Below are positions 54,001-63,998 of a stretch of DNA of 64,000 nucleotides, in pieces. Location: the NCBI GenBank assembly GCA_965178125.1, contig OZ237735.1, positions 1,054,001-1,118,000 on the forward strand, given 5' to 3'. This DNA is from Bilabrum cf. latius. Taxonomy: Eukaryota. Below the pieces are notes generated by a model that saw only the letters and a program-made list of their open reading frames with translations, did not search any database and was not told the DNA's origin. Positions within the stretch are counted from its first letter, which is position 1, and each line of letters starts with the position of its first letter. The translations under genes and the position numbers were made by a program.

Positions 54001-54936
54001 CCCACAGTCACCGCGCCCGACGAGTCAAGCGACGAAGACCCAGACAGCACGCTCACGCCGCCAGATGCAGCCGACACCGCCGCGCCCGATCCCACAGTCA
54101 CCACGCCAGACACCGCGTTCGTCGACGCGCCCGACGCCACGCTCACCGCGCCCGATGACGCTGATGCCGCATCGCCAGACCGCACAGTCACCGCGCCCGT
54201 CACATCCACGTCGGACGTGCCAGAGCCCACAGTCACCGTGCCCGACGAGTCAAGCGACGAAGACCCAGACAGCACGCTCACGCCGCCAGATGCAGCCGAC
54301 ACCGCCGCGCCCGAGCCCACAGTCACCACGCCAGACACCGCGTTCGTCGATGCGCCCGACGCCACGCTCACCGCGCCCGATGACGCGGATGCCGCATCGC
54401 CAGACCGCACAGTCACCGCGCCCGTCACATCCTTGTCAGACACGCCCGACAGCACGCTCACGCCGCCAGATGCAGCCGACACCGCCGCGCCCGATCCCAC
54501 AGTCACCACGCCAGACACCGCGTTCGTCGATGCGCCCGACGCCACGCTCACCGCGCCCGATGACGCGGATGCCGCATCGCCAGACCGCACAGTCACCGCG
54601 CCCGTCACATCCACGTCGGACGTGCCAGAGCCCACAGTCACCGCGCCCGACGAGTCAAGCGACGAAGACCCAGACAGCACGCTCACGCCGCCAGATGCAG
54701 CCGACACCGCCGCGCCCGATCCCACAGTCACCACGCCAGACACCGCGTTCGTCGATGCGCCCGACGCCACGCTCACCGCGCCCGATGACGCGGATGCCGC
54801 ATCGCCAGACCGCACAGTCACCGCGCCCGTCACATCCTTGTCAGACACGCCCGACAGCACGCTCACGCCGCCAGATGCAGCCGACACCGCCGCGCCCGAT
54901 CCCACAGTCACCACGCCAGACACCGCATTCGTCGAT
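1..54936 (-). repeat. Coding tandem array A: interspersed 180-bp (60 aa) and 225-bp (75 aa) units made of 45-bp subunits, roughly 270 units
   Basis: Short unit, minus strand: SGVVTVGSGAAVSAA-SGGVSVLSGVSDKDV-TG[A/T]VTVRSGDAASAS-SGAVSVASGASTNAV. The long unit replaces the second coil with SGGVSVLSGSSSLDS-SGAVTVGSGTSDVDV. Copies are near-identical. The array ends at ...gcattcgtcgat (54936). Unit count is estimated from length. Confidence 0.97.
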
Positions 54937-57900
54937 ATTCCGGAGAGCAGTTGCACGTCTCCAGATCTTCCGGAACCGCTATTGCCGCTGGCGATTTCAA
55001 CTGCACCTGAGAAACCATTTGTTGAGTCACCGGATAATACTTGAAGCTACCCTGACGACCCGCTTGGTCCGGTTCCTGCAGAACTTCTCAATAGAATGGT
55101 GCCTGATGTCTATCCTGTAGCAGCCTCTCCTGATTCAATCACGATGTTTCCTCCATTGTGCAACGTGGAAGATGACATGCCTGCGTTAATTTGGATATTG
55201 CCACCGTTCTAGTTCTCAGCAGATCCTGCTGAGACACTTATTGCTCCAACCGTACCTCTTGTTGTTGATCCTGATGATAAAAGCAACCAACCCGACTGTC
55301 CGGACGTCGAGGAGCCGGTTTGCAAAATGGCATTACCAGAAGAGGCAATTCCACTAGCAGATGCTAGATTGAGAACACCAGATGCTCCATCATTGTTCTG
55401 GCTAGCACCGGTAATAAGTGAGATTGAACCTCCAGTGTTAGGTGCATCGCCCGCCAAAACTTGAACTCCGCCTCCCGACCCGATAGATGTTGACCCAACA
55501 ACAAGACTTATGTCGCCCGCTTGCCCACCTGTAGCAGCCCCAGTTGCCAGGACCGCATCACCAGATGAACCACCTGTTGCAGCACCAGTTCCGGCGAAAA
55601 GCTATCCCGACGATGCAGAAACAGCAGTAGATACAGAAACGTCTCCGGACTGATCGGTTGGTGAAGCTGTCTCCCCTGATACAATTCGAACATCACCGCC
55701 GTCAAGGGCGGATCCCGATGCTATTCCAGATGCCTAGATGTGTACATCTCCTGGCGAGCCGGCCGCAACTCCAGCAACAATACTGATTGACCCAGCGATT
55801 GCAGAGCTCGACCCCGACTGCACTATCACATCACCAGAATTCCCCTCAGCATTACCGCTTCCTACTGTAATAACGCCGGAATCCCCCGAGCTTAGCGGAT
55901 CAGCACTCAAAACACTCACAGCGCCGGAAGTCTATCCAGAACCACTAGACACAATGACATCACCACCAGCACTACCACCATCTGAAGCGTCTCCAGCAAG
56001 AACGTAGGCAAGGCCACCGGACCCACTAGACGAGGACCCGACAGCAATACTAATACTACCAGCAACGCCTCTATCGGCAGAACCAGTATCGAGAACCAGC
56101 CAACCAGAATTACCCGACTATGCGTCCCCAGAAAAAACATTAACAGCGCCAGACTATCCCGCAGCAGCAACCCCACTACTAAATGAAACAGCACCAGACA
56201 CACCTGAAACAACAGCACCAGAAGCAACAGACACCGTTCCAGATGCTCCACCCTGTCCAGACCCAGCCGCGCTGCCCACGCTCACAGACCCGCTCGTCTG
56301 CCCGTCCGCCGCGCCCCCAGACTGCACGCGCACCAGCCCGCCCGTGCCGCTCGTACCAGAGCTGGACCCGGCCAGCACGTACACGGACCCGCCAGCCTCA
56401 GACACGCCGCTCGTCTGCGATGCCTGCACAGACACCGACCCACTAGCACCCAGCGTGGACTCCCCAGTGCGCAGCACAAGCCAGCCAGCGTCGCCCGACG
56501 ATGCGTCGCCAGTCTCAACCACCACGTTCCCGCTGCTGCCGCGCAGAGCTCCGCCGCTCGACACGCTCACAGACCCAGACGCATCGCCAGACGATGTGCC
56601 GGATCCCACGCTCACAGACCCAGACACGTCAAGCAACGAGTCGCCCGATCCCACGCTCACAGACCCAGACGCCGCTGACACCGCAGATCCAGATGTCACG
56701 CTCACAGACCCAGACACATCTCGAGTCGCATCGCCGGATGCTACCGTCACACTCCCAGATGCTGCCGACAACGCAGATCCAGATGTCACGCTCACAGCGC
56801 CCGACACCGAGTTCGTCGCAAACCCAGATCCCACGCTCACGCTGCCCGATGAGCCAGACCCAGCGTTCCCGCTCGACACAGACACCACGCCAGTAAAGCC
56901 GCCCGTGGACACACCACTCGACACATCCACGGCCCCAGACGAACCGTCCGATCCAGACCCAGCCGCGCTGCCCACGCTCACAGACCCGCTCGTCTGCCCG
57001 TCCGCCGCGCCCCCAGACTGCACGCGCACCAGCCCGCCCGTGCCGCTCGTACCAGAGCTGGACCCGGCCAGCACGTACACGGACCCGCCAGCCTCAGACA
57101 CGCCGCTCGTCTGCGATGCCTGCACAGACACCGACCCACTAGCACCCAGCGTGGACTCCCCAGTGCGCAGCACAAGCCAGCCAGCGTCGCCCGACGATGC
57201 GTCGCCAGTCTCAACCACCACGTTCCCGCTGCTGCCGCGCAGAGCTCCGCCGCTCGACACGCTCACAGACCCAGACGCATCGCCAGACGATGTGCCGGAT
57301 CCCACGCTCACAGACCCAGACACGTCAAGCAACGAGTCGCCCGATCCCACGCTCACAGACCCAGACGCCGCTGACACCGCAGATCCAGATGTCACGCTCA
57401 CAGCGCCCGACACCGAGTTCGTCGCAAACCCAGATCCCACGCTCACGCTGCCCGATGAGCCAGACCCAGCGTTCCCGCTCGACACAGACACCACGCCAGT
57501 GAAGCCGCCCGTGGACACACCACTCGACACATCCACGGCCCCAGACGAACCGTCCGATCCAGACCCAGCCGCGCTGCCCACGCTCACAGACCCGCTCGTC
57601 TGCCCGTCCGCCGCGCCCCCAGACTGCACGCGCACCAGCCCGCCCGTGCCGCTCGTACCAGAGCTGGACCCGGCCAGCACGTACACGGACCCGCCAGCCT
57701 CAGACACGCCGCTCGTCTGCGATGCCTGCACAGACACCGACCCACTAGCACCCAGCGTGGACTCCCCAGTGCGCAACACAAGCCAGCCAGCGTCGCCCGA
57801 CGATGCGTCGCCAGTCTCAACCACCACGTTCCCGCTGCTGCCGCGCAGAGCTCCGCCGCTCGACACGCTCACAGACCCAGACGCATCGCCAGACGATGTG

Positions 57901-60900
57901 CCGGATCCCACGCTCACAGACCCAGACACGTCAAGCAACGAGTCGCCCGATCCCACGCTCACAGACCCAGACGCCGCTGACACCGCAGATCCAGATGTCA
58001 CGCTCACAGACCCAGACACATCTCGAGTCGCATCGCCGGATGCTACCGTCACACTCCCAGATGCTGCTGACACCGCAGATCCAGATGTCACGCTCACAGC
58101 GCCCGACACCGAGTTCGTCGCAAACCCAGATCCCACGCTCACGCTGCCCGATGAGCCAGACCCAGCGTTCCCGCTCGACACAGACACCACGCCAGTGAAG
58201 CCGCCCGTGGACACACCACTCGACACATCCACGGCCCCAGACGAACCGTCCGATCCAGACCCAGCCGCGCTGCCCACGCTCACAGACCCGCTCGTCTGCC
58301 CGTCCGCCGCGCCCCCAGACTGCACGCGCACCAGCCCGCCCGTGCCGCTCGTACCAGAGCTGGACCCGGCCAGCACGTACACGGACCCGCCAGCCTCAGA
58401 CACGCCGCTCGTCTGCGATGCCTGCACAGACACCGACCCACTAGCACCCAGCGTGGACTCCCCAGTGCGCAGCACAAGCCAGCCAGCGTCGCCCGACGAT
58501 GCGTCGCCAGTCTCAACCACCACGTTCCCGCTGCTGCCGCGCAGAGCTCCGCCGCTCGACACGCTCACAGACCCAGACGCATCGCCAGACGATGTGCCGG
58601 ATCCCACGCTCACAGACCCAGACACGTCAAGCAACGAGTCGCCCGATCCCACGCTCACAGACCCAGACGCCGCTGACACCGCAGATCCAGATGTCACGCT
58701 CACAGACCCAGACACATCTCGAGTCGCATCACCGGATGCTACCGTCACACTCCCAGATGCTGCCGACAACGCAGATCCAGATGTCACGCTCACAGCGCCC
58801 GACACCGAGTTCGTCGCAAACCCAGATCCCACGCTCACGCTGCCCGATGAGCCAGACCCAGCGTTCCCGCTCGACACAGACACCACGCCAGTAAAGCCGC
58901 CCGTGGACACACCACTCGACACATCCACGGCCCCAGACGAACCGTCCGATCCAGACCCAGCCGCGCTGCCCACGCTCACAGACCCGCTCGTCTGCCCGTC
59001 CGCCGCGCCCCCAGACTGCACGCGCACCAGCCCGCCCGTGCCGCTCGTACCAGAGCTGGACCCGGCCAGCACGTACACGGACCCGCCAGCCTCAGACACG
59101 CCGCTCGTCTGCGATGCCTGCACAGACACCGACCCACTAGCACCCAGCGTGGACTCCCCAGTGCGCAGCACAAGCCAGCCAGCGTCGCCCGACGATGCGT
59201 CGCCAGTCTCAACCACCACGTTCCCGCTGCTGCCGCGCAGAGCTCCGCCGCTCGACACGCTCACAGACCCAGACGCATCGCCAGACGATGTGCCGGATCC
59301 CACGCTCACAGACCCAGACACGTCAAGCAACGAGTCGCCCGATCCCACGCTCACAGACCCAGACGCCGCTGACACCGCAGATCCAGATGTCACGCTCACA
59401 GACCCAGACACATCTCGAGTCGCATCGCCGGATGCTACCGTCACACTCCCAGATGCTGCCGACAACGCAGATCCAGATGTCACGCTCACAGCGCCCGACA
59501 CCGAGTTCGTCGCAAACCCAGATCCCACGCTCACGCTGCCCGATGAGCCAGACCCAGCGTTCCCGCTCGACACAGACACCACGCCAGTGAAGCCGCCCGT
59601 GGACACACCACTCGACACATCCACGGCCCCAGACGAACCGTCCGATCCAGACCCAGCCGCGCTGCCCACGCTCACAGACCCGCTCGTCTGCCCGTCCGCC
59701 GCGCCCCCAGACTGCACGCGCACCAGCCCGCCCGTGCCGCTCGTACCAGAGCTGGACCCGGCCAGCACGTACACGGACCCGCCAGCCTCAGACACGCCGC
59801 TCGTCTGCGATGCCTGCACAGACACCGACCCACTAGCACCCAGCGTGGACTCCCCAGTGCGCAGCACAAGCCAGCCAGCGTCGCCCGACGATGCGTCGCC
59901 AGTCTCAACCACCACGTTCCCGCTGCTGCCGCGCAGAGCTCCGCCGCTCGACACGCTCACAGACCCAGACGCATCGCCAGACGATGTGCCGGATCCCACG
60001 CTCACAGACCCAGACACGTCAAGCAACGAGTCGCCCGATCCCACGCTCACAGACCCAGACGCCGCTGACACCGCAGATCCAGATGTCACGCTCACAGACC
60101 CAGACACATCTCGAGTCGCATCGCCGGATGCTACCGTCACACTCCCAGATGCTGCCGACAACGCAGATCCAGATGTCACGCTCACAGCGCCCGACACCGA
60201 GTTCGTCGCAAACCCAGATCCCACGCTCACGCTGCCCGATGAGCCAGACCCAGCGTTCCCGCTCGACACAGACACCACGCCAGTGAAGCCGCCCGTGGAC
60301 ACACCACTCGACACATCCACGGCCCCAGACGAACCGTCCGATCCAGACCCAGCCGCGCTGCCCACGCTCACAGACCCGCTCGTCTGCCCGTCCGCCGCGC
60401 CCCCAGACTGCACGCGCACCAGCCCGCCCGTGCCGCTCGTACCAGAGCTGGACCCGGCCAGCACGTACACGGACCCGCCAGCCTCAGACACGCCGCTCGT
60501 CTGCGATGCCTGCACAGACACCGACCCACTAGCACCCAGCGTGGACTCCCCAGTGCGCAGCACAAGCCAGCCAGCGTCGCCCGACGATGCGTCGCCAGTC
60601 TCAACCACCACGTTCCCGCTGCTGCCGCGCAGAGCTCCGCCGCTCGACACGCTCACAGACCCAGACGCATCGCCAGACGATGTGCCGGATCCCACGCTCA
60701 CAGACCCAGACACGTCAAGCAACGAGTCGCCCGATCCCACGCTCACAGACCCAGACGCCGCTGATACCGCAGATCCAGATGTCACGCTCACAGCGCCCGA
60801 CACCGAGTTCGTCGCAAACCCAGATCCCACGCTCACGCTGCCCGATGAGCCAGACCCAGCGTTCCCGCTCGACACAGACACCACGCCAGTGAAGCCGCCC

Positions 60901-63900
60901 GTGGACACACCACTCGACACATCCACGGCCCCAGACGAACCGTCCGATCCAGACCCAGCCGCGCTGCCCACGCTCACAGACCCGCTCGTCTGCCCGTCCG
61001 CCGCGCCCCCAGACTGCACGCGCACCAGCCCGCCCGTGCCGCTCGTACCAGAGCTGGACCCGGCCAGCACGTACACGGACCCGCCAGCCTCAGACACGCC
61101 GCTCGTCTGCGATGCCTGCACAGACACCGACCCACTAGCACCCAGCGTGGACTCCCCAGTGCGCAGCACAAGCCAGCCAGCGTCGCCCGACGATGCGTCG
61201 CCAGTCTCAACCACCACGTTCCCGCTGCTGCCGCGCAGAGCTCCGCCGCTCGACACGCTCACAGACCCAGACGCATCGCCAGACGATGTGCCGGATCCCA
61301 CGCTCACAGACCCAGACACGTCAAGCAACGAGTCGCCCGATCCCACGCTCACAGACCCAGACGCCGCTGATACCGCAGATCCAGATGTCACGCTCACAGC
61401 GCCCGACACCGAGTTCGTCGCAAACCCAGATCCCACGCTCACGCTGCCCGATGAGCCAGACCCAGCGTTCCCGCTCGACACAGACACCACGCCAGTGAAG
61501 CCGCCCGTGGACACACCACTCGACACATCCACGGCCCCAGACGAACCGTCCGATCCAGACCCAGCCGCGCTGCCCACGCTCACAGACCCGCTCGTCTGCC
61601 CGTCCGCCGCGCCCCCAGACTGCACGCGCACCAGCCCGCCCGTGCCGCTCGTACCAGAGCTGGACCCGGCCAGCACGTACACGGACCCGCCAGCCTCAGA
61701 CACGCCGCTCGTCTGCGATGCCTGCACAGACACCGACCCACTAGCACCCAGCGTGGACTCCCCAGTGCGCAGCACAAGCCAGCCAGCGTCGCCCGACGAT
61801 GCGTCGCCAGTCTCAACCACCACGTTCCCGCTGCTGCCGCGCAGAGCTCCGCCGCTCGACACGCTCACAGACCCAGACGCATCGCCAGACGATGTGCCGG
61901 ATCCCACGCTCACAGACCCAGACACGTCAAGCAACGAGTCGCCCGATCCCACGCTCACAGACCCAGACGCCGCTGACACCGCAGATCCAGATGTCACGCT
62001 CACAGACCCAGACACATCTCGAGTCGCATCACCGGATGCTACCGTCACACTCCCAGATGCTGCTGACACCGCAGATCCAGATGTCACGCTCACAGCGCCC
62101 GACACCGAGTTCGTCGCAAACCCAGATCCCACGCTCACGCTGCCCGATGAGCCAGACCCAGCGTTCCCGCTCGACACAGACACCACGCCAGTGAAGCCGC
62201 CCGTGGACACACCACTCGACACATCCACGGCCCCAGACGAACCGTCCGATCCAGACCCAGCCGCGCTGCCCACGCTCACAGACCCGCTCGTCTGCCCGTC
62301 CGCCGCGCCCCCAGACTGCACGCGCACCAGCCCGCCCGTGCCGCTCGTACCAGAGCTGGACCCGGCCAGCACGTACACGGACCCGCCAGCCTCAGACACG
62401 CCGCTCGTCTGCGATGCCTGCACAGACACCGACCCACTAGCACCCAGCGTGGACTCCCCAGTGCGCAGCACAAGCCAGCCAGCGTCGCCCGACGATGCGT
62501 CGCCAGTCTCAACCACCACGTTCCCGCTGCTGCCGCGCAGAGCTCCGCCGCTCGACACGCTCACAGACCCAGACGCATCGCCAGACGATGTGCCGGATCC
62601 CACGCTCACAGACCCAGACACGTCAAGCAACGAGTCGCCCGATCCCACGCTCACAGACCCAGACGCCGCTGACACCGCAGATCCAGATGTCACGCTCACA
62701 GACCCAGACACATCTCGAGTCGCATCGCCGGATGCTACCGTCACACTCCCAGATGCTGCCGACAACGCAGATCCAGATGTCACGCTCACAGCGCCCGACA
62801 CCGAGTTCGTCGCAAACCCAGATCCCACGCTCACGCTGCCCGATGAGCCAGACCCAGCGTTCCCGCTCGACACAGACACCACGCCAGTGAAGCCGCCCGT
62901 GGACACACCACTCGACACATCCACGGCCCCAGACGAACCGTCCGATCCAGACCCAGCCGCGCTGCCCACGCTCACAGACCCGCTCGTCTGCCCGTCCGCC
63001 GCGCCCCCAGACTGCACGCGCACCAGCCCGCCCGTGCCGCTCGTACCAGAGCTGGACCCGGCCAGCACGTACACGGACCCGCCAGCCTCAGACACGCCGC
63101 TCGTCTGCGATGCCTGCACAGACACCGACCCACTAGCACCCAGCGTGGACTCCCCAGTGCGCAGCACAAGCCAGCCAGCGTCGCCCGACGATGCGTCGCC
63201 AGTCTCAACCACCACGTTCCCGCTGCTGCCGCGCAGAGCTCCGCCGCTCGACACGCTCACAGACCCAGACGCATCGCCAGACGATGTGCCGGATCCCACG
63301 CTCACAGACCCAGACACGTCAAGCAACGAGTCGCCCGATCCCACGCTCACAGACCCAGATGCCGCTGATACCGCAGATCCAGATGTCACGCTCACAGCGC
63401 CCGACACCGAGTTCGTCGCAAACCCAGATCCCACGCTCACGCTGCCCGATGAGCCAGACCCAGCGTTCCCGCTCGACACAGACACCACGCCAGTGAAGCC
63501 GCCCGTGGACACACCACTCGACACATCCACGGCCCCAGACGAACCGTCCGATCCAGACCCAGCCGCGCTGCCCACGCTCACAGACCCGCTCGTCTGCCCG
63601 TCCGCCGCGCCCCCAGACTGCACGCGCACCAGCCCGCCCGTGCCGCTCGTACCAGAGCTGGACCCGGCCAGCACGTACACGGACCCGCCAGCCTCAGACA
63701 CGCCGCTCGTCTGCGATGCCTGCACAGACACCGACCCACTAGCACCCAGCGTGGACTCCCCAGTGCGCAGCACAAGCCAGCCAGCGTCGCCCGACGATGC
63801 GTCGCCAGTCTCAACCACCACGTTCCCGCTGCTGCCACGCAGAGCTCCGCCGCTCGACACGCTCACAGACCCAGACGCATCGCCAGACGATGTGCCGGAT

Positions 63901-63998
63901 CCCACGCTCACAGACCCAGACACGTCAAGCAACGAGTCGCCCGATCCCACGCTCACAGACCCAGACGCCGCTGATACCGCAGATCCAGATGTCACGCT
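3..63998 (-). CDS. Internal fragment (5' and 3' partial) of a giant Gly/Ser/Val/Ala-rich repeat protein, predicted beta-solenoid fibre, at least ~21,330 aa; requires TAG to be read as sense (likely Gln)
   Basis: Track ORFs 56154..63995, 55734..55919 and 55209..55457 share one minus frame. Manual translation of the gaps keeps the SGxVxVxSG motif through 8 TAG codons. The frame then enters array A (...SGRSGDVQLLSGISTNAVSGVVTVGSGAAVSAASGGVSVLSG...) and, in the unit consensus and all variants I checked, stays stop-free to position 3. That part is probably missing from the track because it has no stop inside the window. Confidence 0.85.
17250..20726. repeat. Higher-order tandem duplication within array A, period 1755 bp (6x180 + 3x225)
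   Basis: The rare variant gttgat occurs at 17536 and 19291, 1755 bp apart. The order of short/long units and the point variants match between 17250..18971 and 19005..20726. Flanking mismatches are at 17249/19004 and 18972/20727. Confidence 0.8.
54937..56255 (-). other. Non-repetitive coding linker (~440 codons) of diverged solenoid coils joining arrays B and A
   Basis: Translation includes ...GVAAAG*SGAVNVFSGDA*SGNSGWLVLDTGSADRGVAGSISIAVG...DVIVSSGSG*TSGAVSVL...PGDVHI*ASGIASG...SASSG*LFAGTG...SAGSAEN*NGGNIQINAG...IESGEAATG*TSGTILLRSSAGTGPSGSSG*LQVLSGDSTNGFSGAVEIASG. Sampled lines are 43-55% GC, versus 73% in a sampled array A line. Confidence 0.9.
55047..56156 (-). other. Eight in-frame TAG codons, putatively recoded as Gln
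   Basis: Plus-strand cta triplets in the coding frame start at 55047, 55110, 55209, 55602, 55734, 55932, 56118 and 56154. No in-frame TAA or TGA. Confidence 0.9.

Follow-up and report, generated by a model that had tools for sequence, protein, structure and literature searches.

Codes in which UAG and UAA carry different meanings are few (PMC11687900), and their existence demonstrates that the machinery of translation is able to tell these codons apart. In the fornicate Iotanema spirale, 204 in-frame UAG codons occur in 126 genes, and the genes terminate with UAA (104) or UGA (15) (PMC5304391). The same assignment, in which UAG encodes glutamine (Gln) and UAA and UGA are stops, is described in PMC11687900 for Hartmannula sinica and Trochilia petrani, and Protocruzia tuzeti is cited there as a further case. 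A transfer RNA (tRNA) with the anticodon CUA reads UAG only, whereas one with UUA drags both codons along (PMC11687900). Other decoupled codes listed in that paper assign UAG to leucine (Leu; rhizarian exLh and TARA phyllopharyngeans) or serine (Ser; Scotinosphaera), and in an oligohymenophorean ciliate UAA encodes lysine and UAG glutamate (Glu) (PMC11687900). In table 6, both UAA and UAG (UAR) encode Gln, as in many ciliates, hexamitin diplomonads, some Ulvophyceae, Streblomastix, and Amoeboaphelidium (PMC11687900). Here, a stretch of 64,000 nucleotides of contig OZ237735.1 (assembly GCA_965178125.1, deposited as Bilabrum cf. latius; positions 1,054,001 to 1,118,000), referred to as the window, is compared with these systems. 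Its minus strand carries a unique coding segment at 54937–56255, in which TAG stands in frame eight times and TAA and TGA do not occur, and in which UAG alone may have been reassigned, most probably to Gln.

The segment resembles the UAG-only Gln codes of Iotanema, Hartmannula, Trochilia, and Protocruzia in having in-frame TAG and no in-frame TAA or TGA. TAG accounts for 8 of its 19 Gln-type codons, compared with 31.8% in T. petrani and 18.5% in H. sinica (PMC11687900). Its background is poor in guanine plus cytosine at third codon positions (GC3), which would be compatible with the use of TAA as the main terminator, the situation in those species. The known UAG-only cases, as presented in these two papers, comprise hundreds of TAGs in many conserved genes with UAA at gene ends, whereas the window offers one gene. 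The named relatives of the window protein are oomycete, whereas the known UAG-only Gln species are ciliates or a fornicate. With table 6 the window shares a TAG that is probably read as Gln; in that code TAA is a frequent Gln codon and exceeds TAG in five of the seven species tabulated in PMC10942620, whereas the window has TAA in 0 of 8 cases, a small sample. The likeness to the other decoupled codes lies in TAG alone being out of the stop set. Among their residues, Leu is unsuited to the polar loops in which the TAGs lie, Ser and Glu remain candidates, and the one conserved column of the window points to Gln.

A further comparison is with phage code 15, in which TAG encodes Gln in crAss-like and other phages. 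Its codon table is the one proposed for the window. In contrast to such phages, the window gave no phage signal in PHROGs, phage records, or viral contigs, and one frame that extends over more than 64 kb, with 70% guanine plus cytosine (GC), is unlike a phage gene.

TAG as a sense codon in the unique segment

The 439 minus-strand codons of 54937–56255 include CAA six times (lower coordinates 54951, 55041, 55191, 55320, 55461, and 55521), CAG five times (55296, 55398, 55650, 55818, and 56253), TAG eight times, and TAA and TGA not at all. The original prediction had given these counts for CAA, CAG, TAG, and TAA and the positions of CAA and CAG, all of which proved exact, and had rightly named TAG as the most used Gln-type codon. 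In the direction of translation, the TAGs lie at 56154–56156 (context AAG-TAG-SGAV), 56118–56120 (GDA-TAG-SGNSGW), 55932–55934 (motif G-x-T-S-G), 55734–55736 (DVHI-TAG-ASG), 55602–55604 (SSG-TAG-LFAG), 55209–55211 (SAEN-TAG-NGG), 55110–55112 (a second copy of G-x-T-S-G), and 55047–55049 (SSG-TAG-LQVL). A glycine (Gly) codon precedes five of the eight (GGA four times and GGG once).

Stop codon usage was tested in a strict stretch of 400 codons (54957–56156; 1,200 bases), which contains five CAA and four CAG. Position-specific composition predicts 3.4 TAA, 2.3 TAG, and 6.0 TGA for this stretch, and 0, 8, and 0 were observed. In 20,000 shuffles of the codon positions, TAA and TGA were never absent together. 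Read in the two remaining minus-strand frames, these 1,200 bases contain 9 TAA, 13 TAG, and 17 TGA, and the comparison of in-frame with out-of-frame counts was significant for TGA against TAG (one-sided Fisher test, p = 0.0042) and for TAA and TGA together against TAG (p = 0.00065). These results show that the frame is coding and that it tolerates TAG and does not tolerate TAA and TGA. An untranslated or decayed stretch is unlikely, because two stops are avoided and eight of the third have accumulated without a frameshift.

The composition and the repeat structure of the segment lead to the same conclusion. GC at codon positions 1, 2, and 3 is 0.56, 0.63, and 0.36 in the segment, 0.64, 0.70, and 0.77 in the repeat array to its left, and 0.61, 0.70, and 0.70 in the array to its right. 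When the protein is written in rows of 15 residues, a motif consisting of a short V/I-x-V/I strand followed by S-G carries on from the right array across the segment and into the left one, with few register shifts, and passes through all eight TAGs. A unit of about 80 residues from the right array is also present twice in the segment, in copies that are 55% and 42% identical to the array unit, with 26 invariant columns. Since GC falls mainly at third positions, the repeat register continues through the TAGs, and relatives exist in frame, the unique segment is coding on the minus strand. It is therefore well supported that TAG is a sense codon here, in one gene.

The letters themselves were checked in public sequencing runs. 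Contigs of the runs X1, X5, X6, and X7 cover 1,386, 1,027, about 750, and 151 bases of the segment, respectively. A 1,389-nt contig of X1 spans 54900–56285 with no differences, and the sole difference listed among the contigs of the four runs is one A>G at 55536 in X6. The four runs carry four coded organism labels and belong to four studies, of which X1 may be the source sample rather than independent support. The TAGs are not assembly errors, because contigs of four runs carry the same letters.

The residue written as TAG and the absence of TAA

Among the paralogous columns aligned with a TAG, a single one is invariant, the Q of G-Q-T-S-G, which is written as CAG in the array unit and as TAG at 55932 and 55110, codons that are one transition apart. 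In the G-x-T-S-G motif, Q occurs in 12 of 12 right-array units, and no other residue takes that place anywhere in the 21,332 codons of the frame. A masked re-alignment was made between 156 relatives and a query bearing X at every TAG, every CAA and CAG, and 13 random Ser positions. Enrichment over background was 2.1-fold for Gln and 0.9-fold for Ser in the TAG columns, 2.35-fold and 0.8-fold in the CAA/CAG columns, and 1.5-fold and 1.6-fold in the Ser columns. G-Q-T-S-G is not conserved in distant relatives, and the conserved-Gln support reaches two of the eight TAGs by way of one paralogous column of one repeat gene. Given that TAG is sense, these comparisons make Gln the likely residue; Glu and Ser are less probable candidates. 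The original prediction that UAG encodes Gln is thus upheld as to the sense reading, through the shuffles, the repeat register, the relatives, and the four runs, and is plausible as to Gln, through that one conserved column.

The absence of TAA is a separate matter. Across the frame, 21,332 codons hold neither TAA nor TGA, although only 400–439 codons of low GC3 are informative for the absence of TAA. In the segment, A-ending codons are not rare (third-position A 0.25 and G 0.17). A one-sided Fisher test of CAG 5 and CAA 6 against TAG 8 and TAA 0 gave p = 0.017, and the strict 400-codon limits gave p = 0.020. TAA to TAG was 0:8 in frame and 9:13 out of frame (Fisher p = 0.035), and the Poisson probability of no TAA where 3.4 are expected is 0.034. 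A beta-binomial model that included the uncertainty of the A:G ratio put the marginal probability of 0 TAA among the 8 codons at 0.010–0.030 if UAR encodes Gln. The original prediction had put this probability at (5/11)^8, about 0.002. Its arithmetic is right, but a ratio obtained from 11 codons was taken as known, and against Fisher values of 0.017–0.035 the figure was about ten times too optimistic. Likewise, the absence of TAA on which it based an unreassigned UAA is real, but 0 of 8 in one 400-codon stretch, at p of about 0.017–0.035, does not amount to proof.

The null model behind these tests, an equal A:G ratio in the two codon pairs, is reasonable because TAA/TAG follows CAA/CAG, within a factor of 0.34–1.11, in table-6 ciliates. 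In the seven table-6 species in Table 1 of PMC10942620, the quotient (TAA/TAG)/(CAA/CAG), by our arithmetic, is 0.79, 0.69, 0.92, 0.83, 1.11, 0.34, and 0.78; one of the seven, Favella, is inconsistently described in that paper. With the CAA/CAG ratio of 1.2 found here, this spread predicts a TAA share of 0.29–0.57 and a probability of 0 of 8 between 0.065 and 0.0012.

Weighing the alternative readings

Several observations weigh against a UAG-only Gln code. The whole case that TAA is not sense comes from 0 of 8 codons in one 400-codon stretch of one repetitive gene, which makes it suggestive, and the two TAGs in G-x-T-S-G may share one ancestral codon, leaving at most seven independent events. 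The column of TAG 56118 faces TCG (Ser) and ACG (threonine, Thr) in the paralogous units and that of TAG 55209 faces GAG (Glu) and GGG (Gly), each of these codons being one base from TAG. In the alignment of 156 relatives, no dominant residue stands under any TAG in the distant ones. If TAG is counted as Gln, the strict stretch contains 17 Gln in 400 codons (4.3%), compared with 2.7% in relatives and 1.9% in the right array. The minus-strand gene leaves the window at both ends, so no bona fide terminator is in view. No tRNA, Rfam match, rRNA, or second gene was found in the 64-kb window, whereas the Leu-coding relatives described in PMC11687900 are backed by tRNA(CUA) genes. RNA runs were absent among the listed sequencing runs that carry the sequence. 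A eukaryotic origin is tentatively suggested by the names of the relatives and the lack of a phage signal, and a nuclear one likewise by the relatives.

One alternative is an ordinary table-6 code, in which the lack of TAA in the segment would be due to chance, to a local preference among codons, or to common ancestry of the TAGs. Table 6 is the commonest nuclear variant, with at least 13 independent coordinated changes of UAG and UAA ("at least 13" in PMC5304391), and about four lineages, few in any case, are listed as UAG-only Gln codes in PMC11687900; the prior for UAG-only among UAG = Gln lineages was accordingly set at 0.1–0.3. The sample is eight codons, and in Aristerostoma the ratio of TAA to TAG is about one third of that expected from CAA/CAG (PMC10942620), which gives a probability of 0 of 8 of about 0.065. 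Set against this are the Fisher values of 0.017 and 0.035 and the marginal likelihood of 0.01–0.03, the excess of A-ending over G-ending third positions with CAA at least as common as CAG, and the fact that TAA is missing just like TGA, though 3.4 were expected. Table 6 is therefore regarded as unlikely. A code in which UAA and UGA are stops and TAG is sense for Glu, Ser, or Leu is quite improbable. Two of the three aligned TAG columns would suit it (Ser/Thr and Glu/Gly, each codon one base away), Ser makes up 21% of the segment, codes with UAG as Leu, Ser, or Glu are on record (PMC11687900), and CAA and CAG alone already give a family-typical Gln content. The sole invariant motif column under TAG is nevertheless Gln, the profile of the TAG columns resembles that of CAA/CAG and not that of Ser, and Leu, tryptophan (Trp), or tyrosine would not suit TAGs at polar loop positions (SG-x-L/V), where paralogues have D, N, S, A, or G.

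Two further readings dispense with a reassigned TAG on the minus strand. Under the standard code, the upstream array gene would end at the first TAG (56154), and the remainder would be a decayed remnant or subject to rare read-through. Read by table 11 or table 1, the frame is indeed closed at 56154, and an array strand with 9.6% T and near-identical units would have long open frames in any case. Decay would have gathered TAA, TGA, and frameshifts, whereas 0 TAA and 0 TGA stand against 9.4 expected, a result matched by 0 of 20,000 shuffles. The frame is unbroken over 400 codons, both arrays lie in the frame of the segment, GC is lost at third positions, and one relative is still 93% identical in protein sequence along 82 residues, which makes the standard code very improbable. 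It is scarcely credible that the plus strand is coding, for a protein rich in proline (Pro), aspartate (Asp), and Thr, with the minus frame as its shadow. The plus frame from base 1 is nearly open, with 6 stops in 64 kb, and because its third positions coincide with those of the minus frame, the GC3 argument applies to either. Its stops are of two kinds (three TGA and three TAG), so two reassignments would be needed, and the relatives and the independently called open reading frame (ORF) P0002 lie in the minus frame, in a homology search made with the minus-frame product only.

Given that TAG is sense, a code that reassigns UAG and leaves UAA as a stop is considered probable; the posterior from the prior above extends from an even chance to a very high one. 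The full statement, with UAG as Gln and UAA and UGA as stops, is moderately probable. According to this explanation, the unique 1.3-kb segment (GC3 0.36) would write TAG as an ordinary sense codon, most likely for Gln. The expected reader would be a tRNA with the anticodon CUA, pairing with UAG and unable to pair with UAA. The frame excludes TAA and TGA in the way expected of true stops, and TAA would presumably terminate translation in this organism.

The long gene, its protein family and its carrier

The window appears to lie inside one very long minus-strand gene for a protein of 15-residue repeats rich in Ser, Gly, valine (Val), and alanine (Ala). The plus strand is rich in C and A (C 28,498; G 15,986; A 13,393; T 6,123), and GC is about 0.70 along the window except at 54–56 kb. 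The minus-strand frame whose codons end at coordinates equal to 2 modulo 3 contains 21,332 codons and is open at both window ends if TAG is sense. Its eight stops in 64,000 bases are all TAG and all within 55047–56156, and the entire frame has 6 CAA, 53 CAG, 8 TAG, 0 TAA, and 0 TGA. If the frame (3–63998) is a single exon, the coding sequence exceeds 64 kb. Ser, Val, Ala, Gly, Thr, and Asp make up nearly all residues of its product.

Both arrays share this frame with the segment. The left, downstream array of high GC (3–54936, minus strand) has no stop, is open to the first bases of the window, and consists of 45-nt units in higher-order repeats of 180, 225, and 405 nt; Tandem Repeats Finder reported 45- and 90-nt units in such repeats from about 1 to 54,923 and more 90-nt repeats past 56,600. 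Its 18,318 codons include one Gln, one Glu, one Pro, one isoleucine, and no aromatic residue. The right, upstream array of high GC (56256–63998, minus strand) is open at the window end and is composed of 12 units of 696 or 606 nt, the difference of 90 nt being equal to two 15-residue repeats. Each unit carries one Trp and four CAG, and all 48 Gln codons of this array are CAG, with no CAA and no TAG. Between the arrays, the segment at 54937–56255 keeps the 15-residue Ser/Gly/Val repeat and contains all eight in-frame TAGs of the frame.

On the other strand, the frame from base 1 is also nearly open over 64 kb, and its six stops (three TGA and three TAG), like those of the minus frame, all fall between 55,042 and 56,156. 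Both frames stay open in the GC3-rich repeats because third codon positions are common to both. The plus-strand frame is uninterrupted at 1–55044 (18,347 codons, on a strand that holds 9.6% T) and looks like a shadow ORF rather than a gene; inside the unique segment it is broken by both TGA and TAG.

The boundaries of the segment are sharp. In 30-codon windows, GC3 rises from 0.17–0.43 inside to 0.77–0.90 outside, in a step within about 50 bases of 54937 and 56255. Contigs of array units from public runs branch to other sequences at 54932–54936 and 56256, which are the edges of the segment. The difference between the arrays and the segment is mainly one of synonymous-site composition. This suggests a homogenisation of the arrays in the direction of GC, for which GC-biased conversion is a possible cause, and a unique part that reflects the baseline composition of the genome.

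Relatives were sought with P0001, the 533-residue translation with TAG as Q, in a full HMMER scan of 1.84 billion representatives. The scan returned 234 proteins at E ≤ 1e-3, 25 at E ≤ 1e-10, and 1 at E ≤ 1e-30. The best match, P0002, is an ORF of 82 residues on a different public contig, with 93% identity; its end falls exactly at the position that TAG 55209–55211 takes in the window. It was also the only short ORF fragment of a relative among 8,000 scored candidates. The other matches are 30–40% identical over 200–350 residues. Among the 19 matches that were looked up, the organism-named proteins belong to Aphanomyces euteiches, Lagenidium giganteum, and Phytophthora palmivora, and two more are labelled as from metagenome-assembled genomes (MAGs). 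Because the identity is only 30–40% in a repeat family, the oomycete matches do not place the organism. A plain 130-residue ORF between two TAGs matched unnamed look-alike clusters in a protein atlas, with few recorded taxa, including Oomycota and Uroviricota.

The family would consist of fibre-like or adhesin-like proteins, and Peptidase_S74, a tail-fibre chaperone domain, is present in some relatives (3 of the 14 matches scanned). Like P0003, P0006, and P0007, which are S74-bearing "tail fiber domain" repeat proteins from oomycetes and MAGs, the window protein has Ser/Gly-rich 15-residue repeats with two near-invariant Gly per unit, 7 or 8 apart. It differs from them in being far larger, with at least 21,332 codons, and in showing no S74 domain in the window. 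Pfam gave no match for three minus-frame and two plus-frame translations; the 3' end of the gene, which would encode a C-terminal S74 domain, lies outside the window. PHROGs matched none of three translations, tblastn against 50,697 phage records gave no match, and a PDB sequence search gave none. No relatives of the translated segment were found in the metagenome, genome, and viral contig collections, and an exact array 30-mer was absent from the metagenome and genome contig collections. A literature search found no paper tied to this sequence in the texts it covered.

Structure prediction by AlphaFold2 gave a mean predicted local distance difference test (pLDDT) of 38.7 from the single sequence, which is useless, and of 65.5 with 42 aligned sequences, where 10-residue blocks from about 240 to 520 reached 72–91. 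Foldseek found 0 matches in the PDB with this model. The best hit of a wide VIA-align search was the phage tail-fibre hyaluronidase 2c3f_A (Z 4.2; root-mean-square deviation 4.5 over 168 residues), which is below the meaningful level and does not allow the fold to be named.

The sequencing runs also bear on the carrier of the gene. The segment (54900–56300) is present at low depth (2–10) in every one of the four runs, which have different organism labels, and the DNA may belong to a shared contaminant or associate and not to the organism on the label. In X1, the summed word depth of array units (sites 54900–54946 and 56263–56300) is 5,690.9 for the left array and 265.8 for the right array, about 590 and about 28 times the 9.6 of the unique segment. 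One array 30-mer has 258 copies in the window. Extra array copies are placed outside the window because the array word depth is far above that of the unique segment. In public contigs, the array unit at 54932–54936 joins at least two other unique sequences, of which one appears in X1, X6, and X7 and a different one in X5. In the frame of the gene, the X5 sequence gives a motif resembling the junction of the window itself, with Gln written as CAA. Paralogous linkers thus seem to exist, and P0002 may be one of those rather than an orthologue.

If the UAG-only reading is true, the window adds a new instance of a rare kind of code that is already known. It is somewhat doubtful, and is offered tentatively, that a lineage outside ciliates and fornicates, with stramenopile (oomycete) proteins as its nearest named relatives, has independently moved UAG alone to Gln and kept UAA and UGA as stops, in an uninterrupted frame of more than 64 kb with a GC3 of about 0.75 in the arrays and about 0.36 in the unique parts. 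Standard annotation would then badly truncate the genes of this organism and of the agents that infect it, as the 82-residue ORF P0002, which stops at the position of TAG 55209, may illustrate. Decoupled codes bear on how reassignment starts, and another independent lineage, especially one outside the ciliates, would add a data point to that question.

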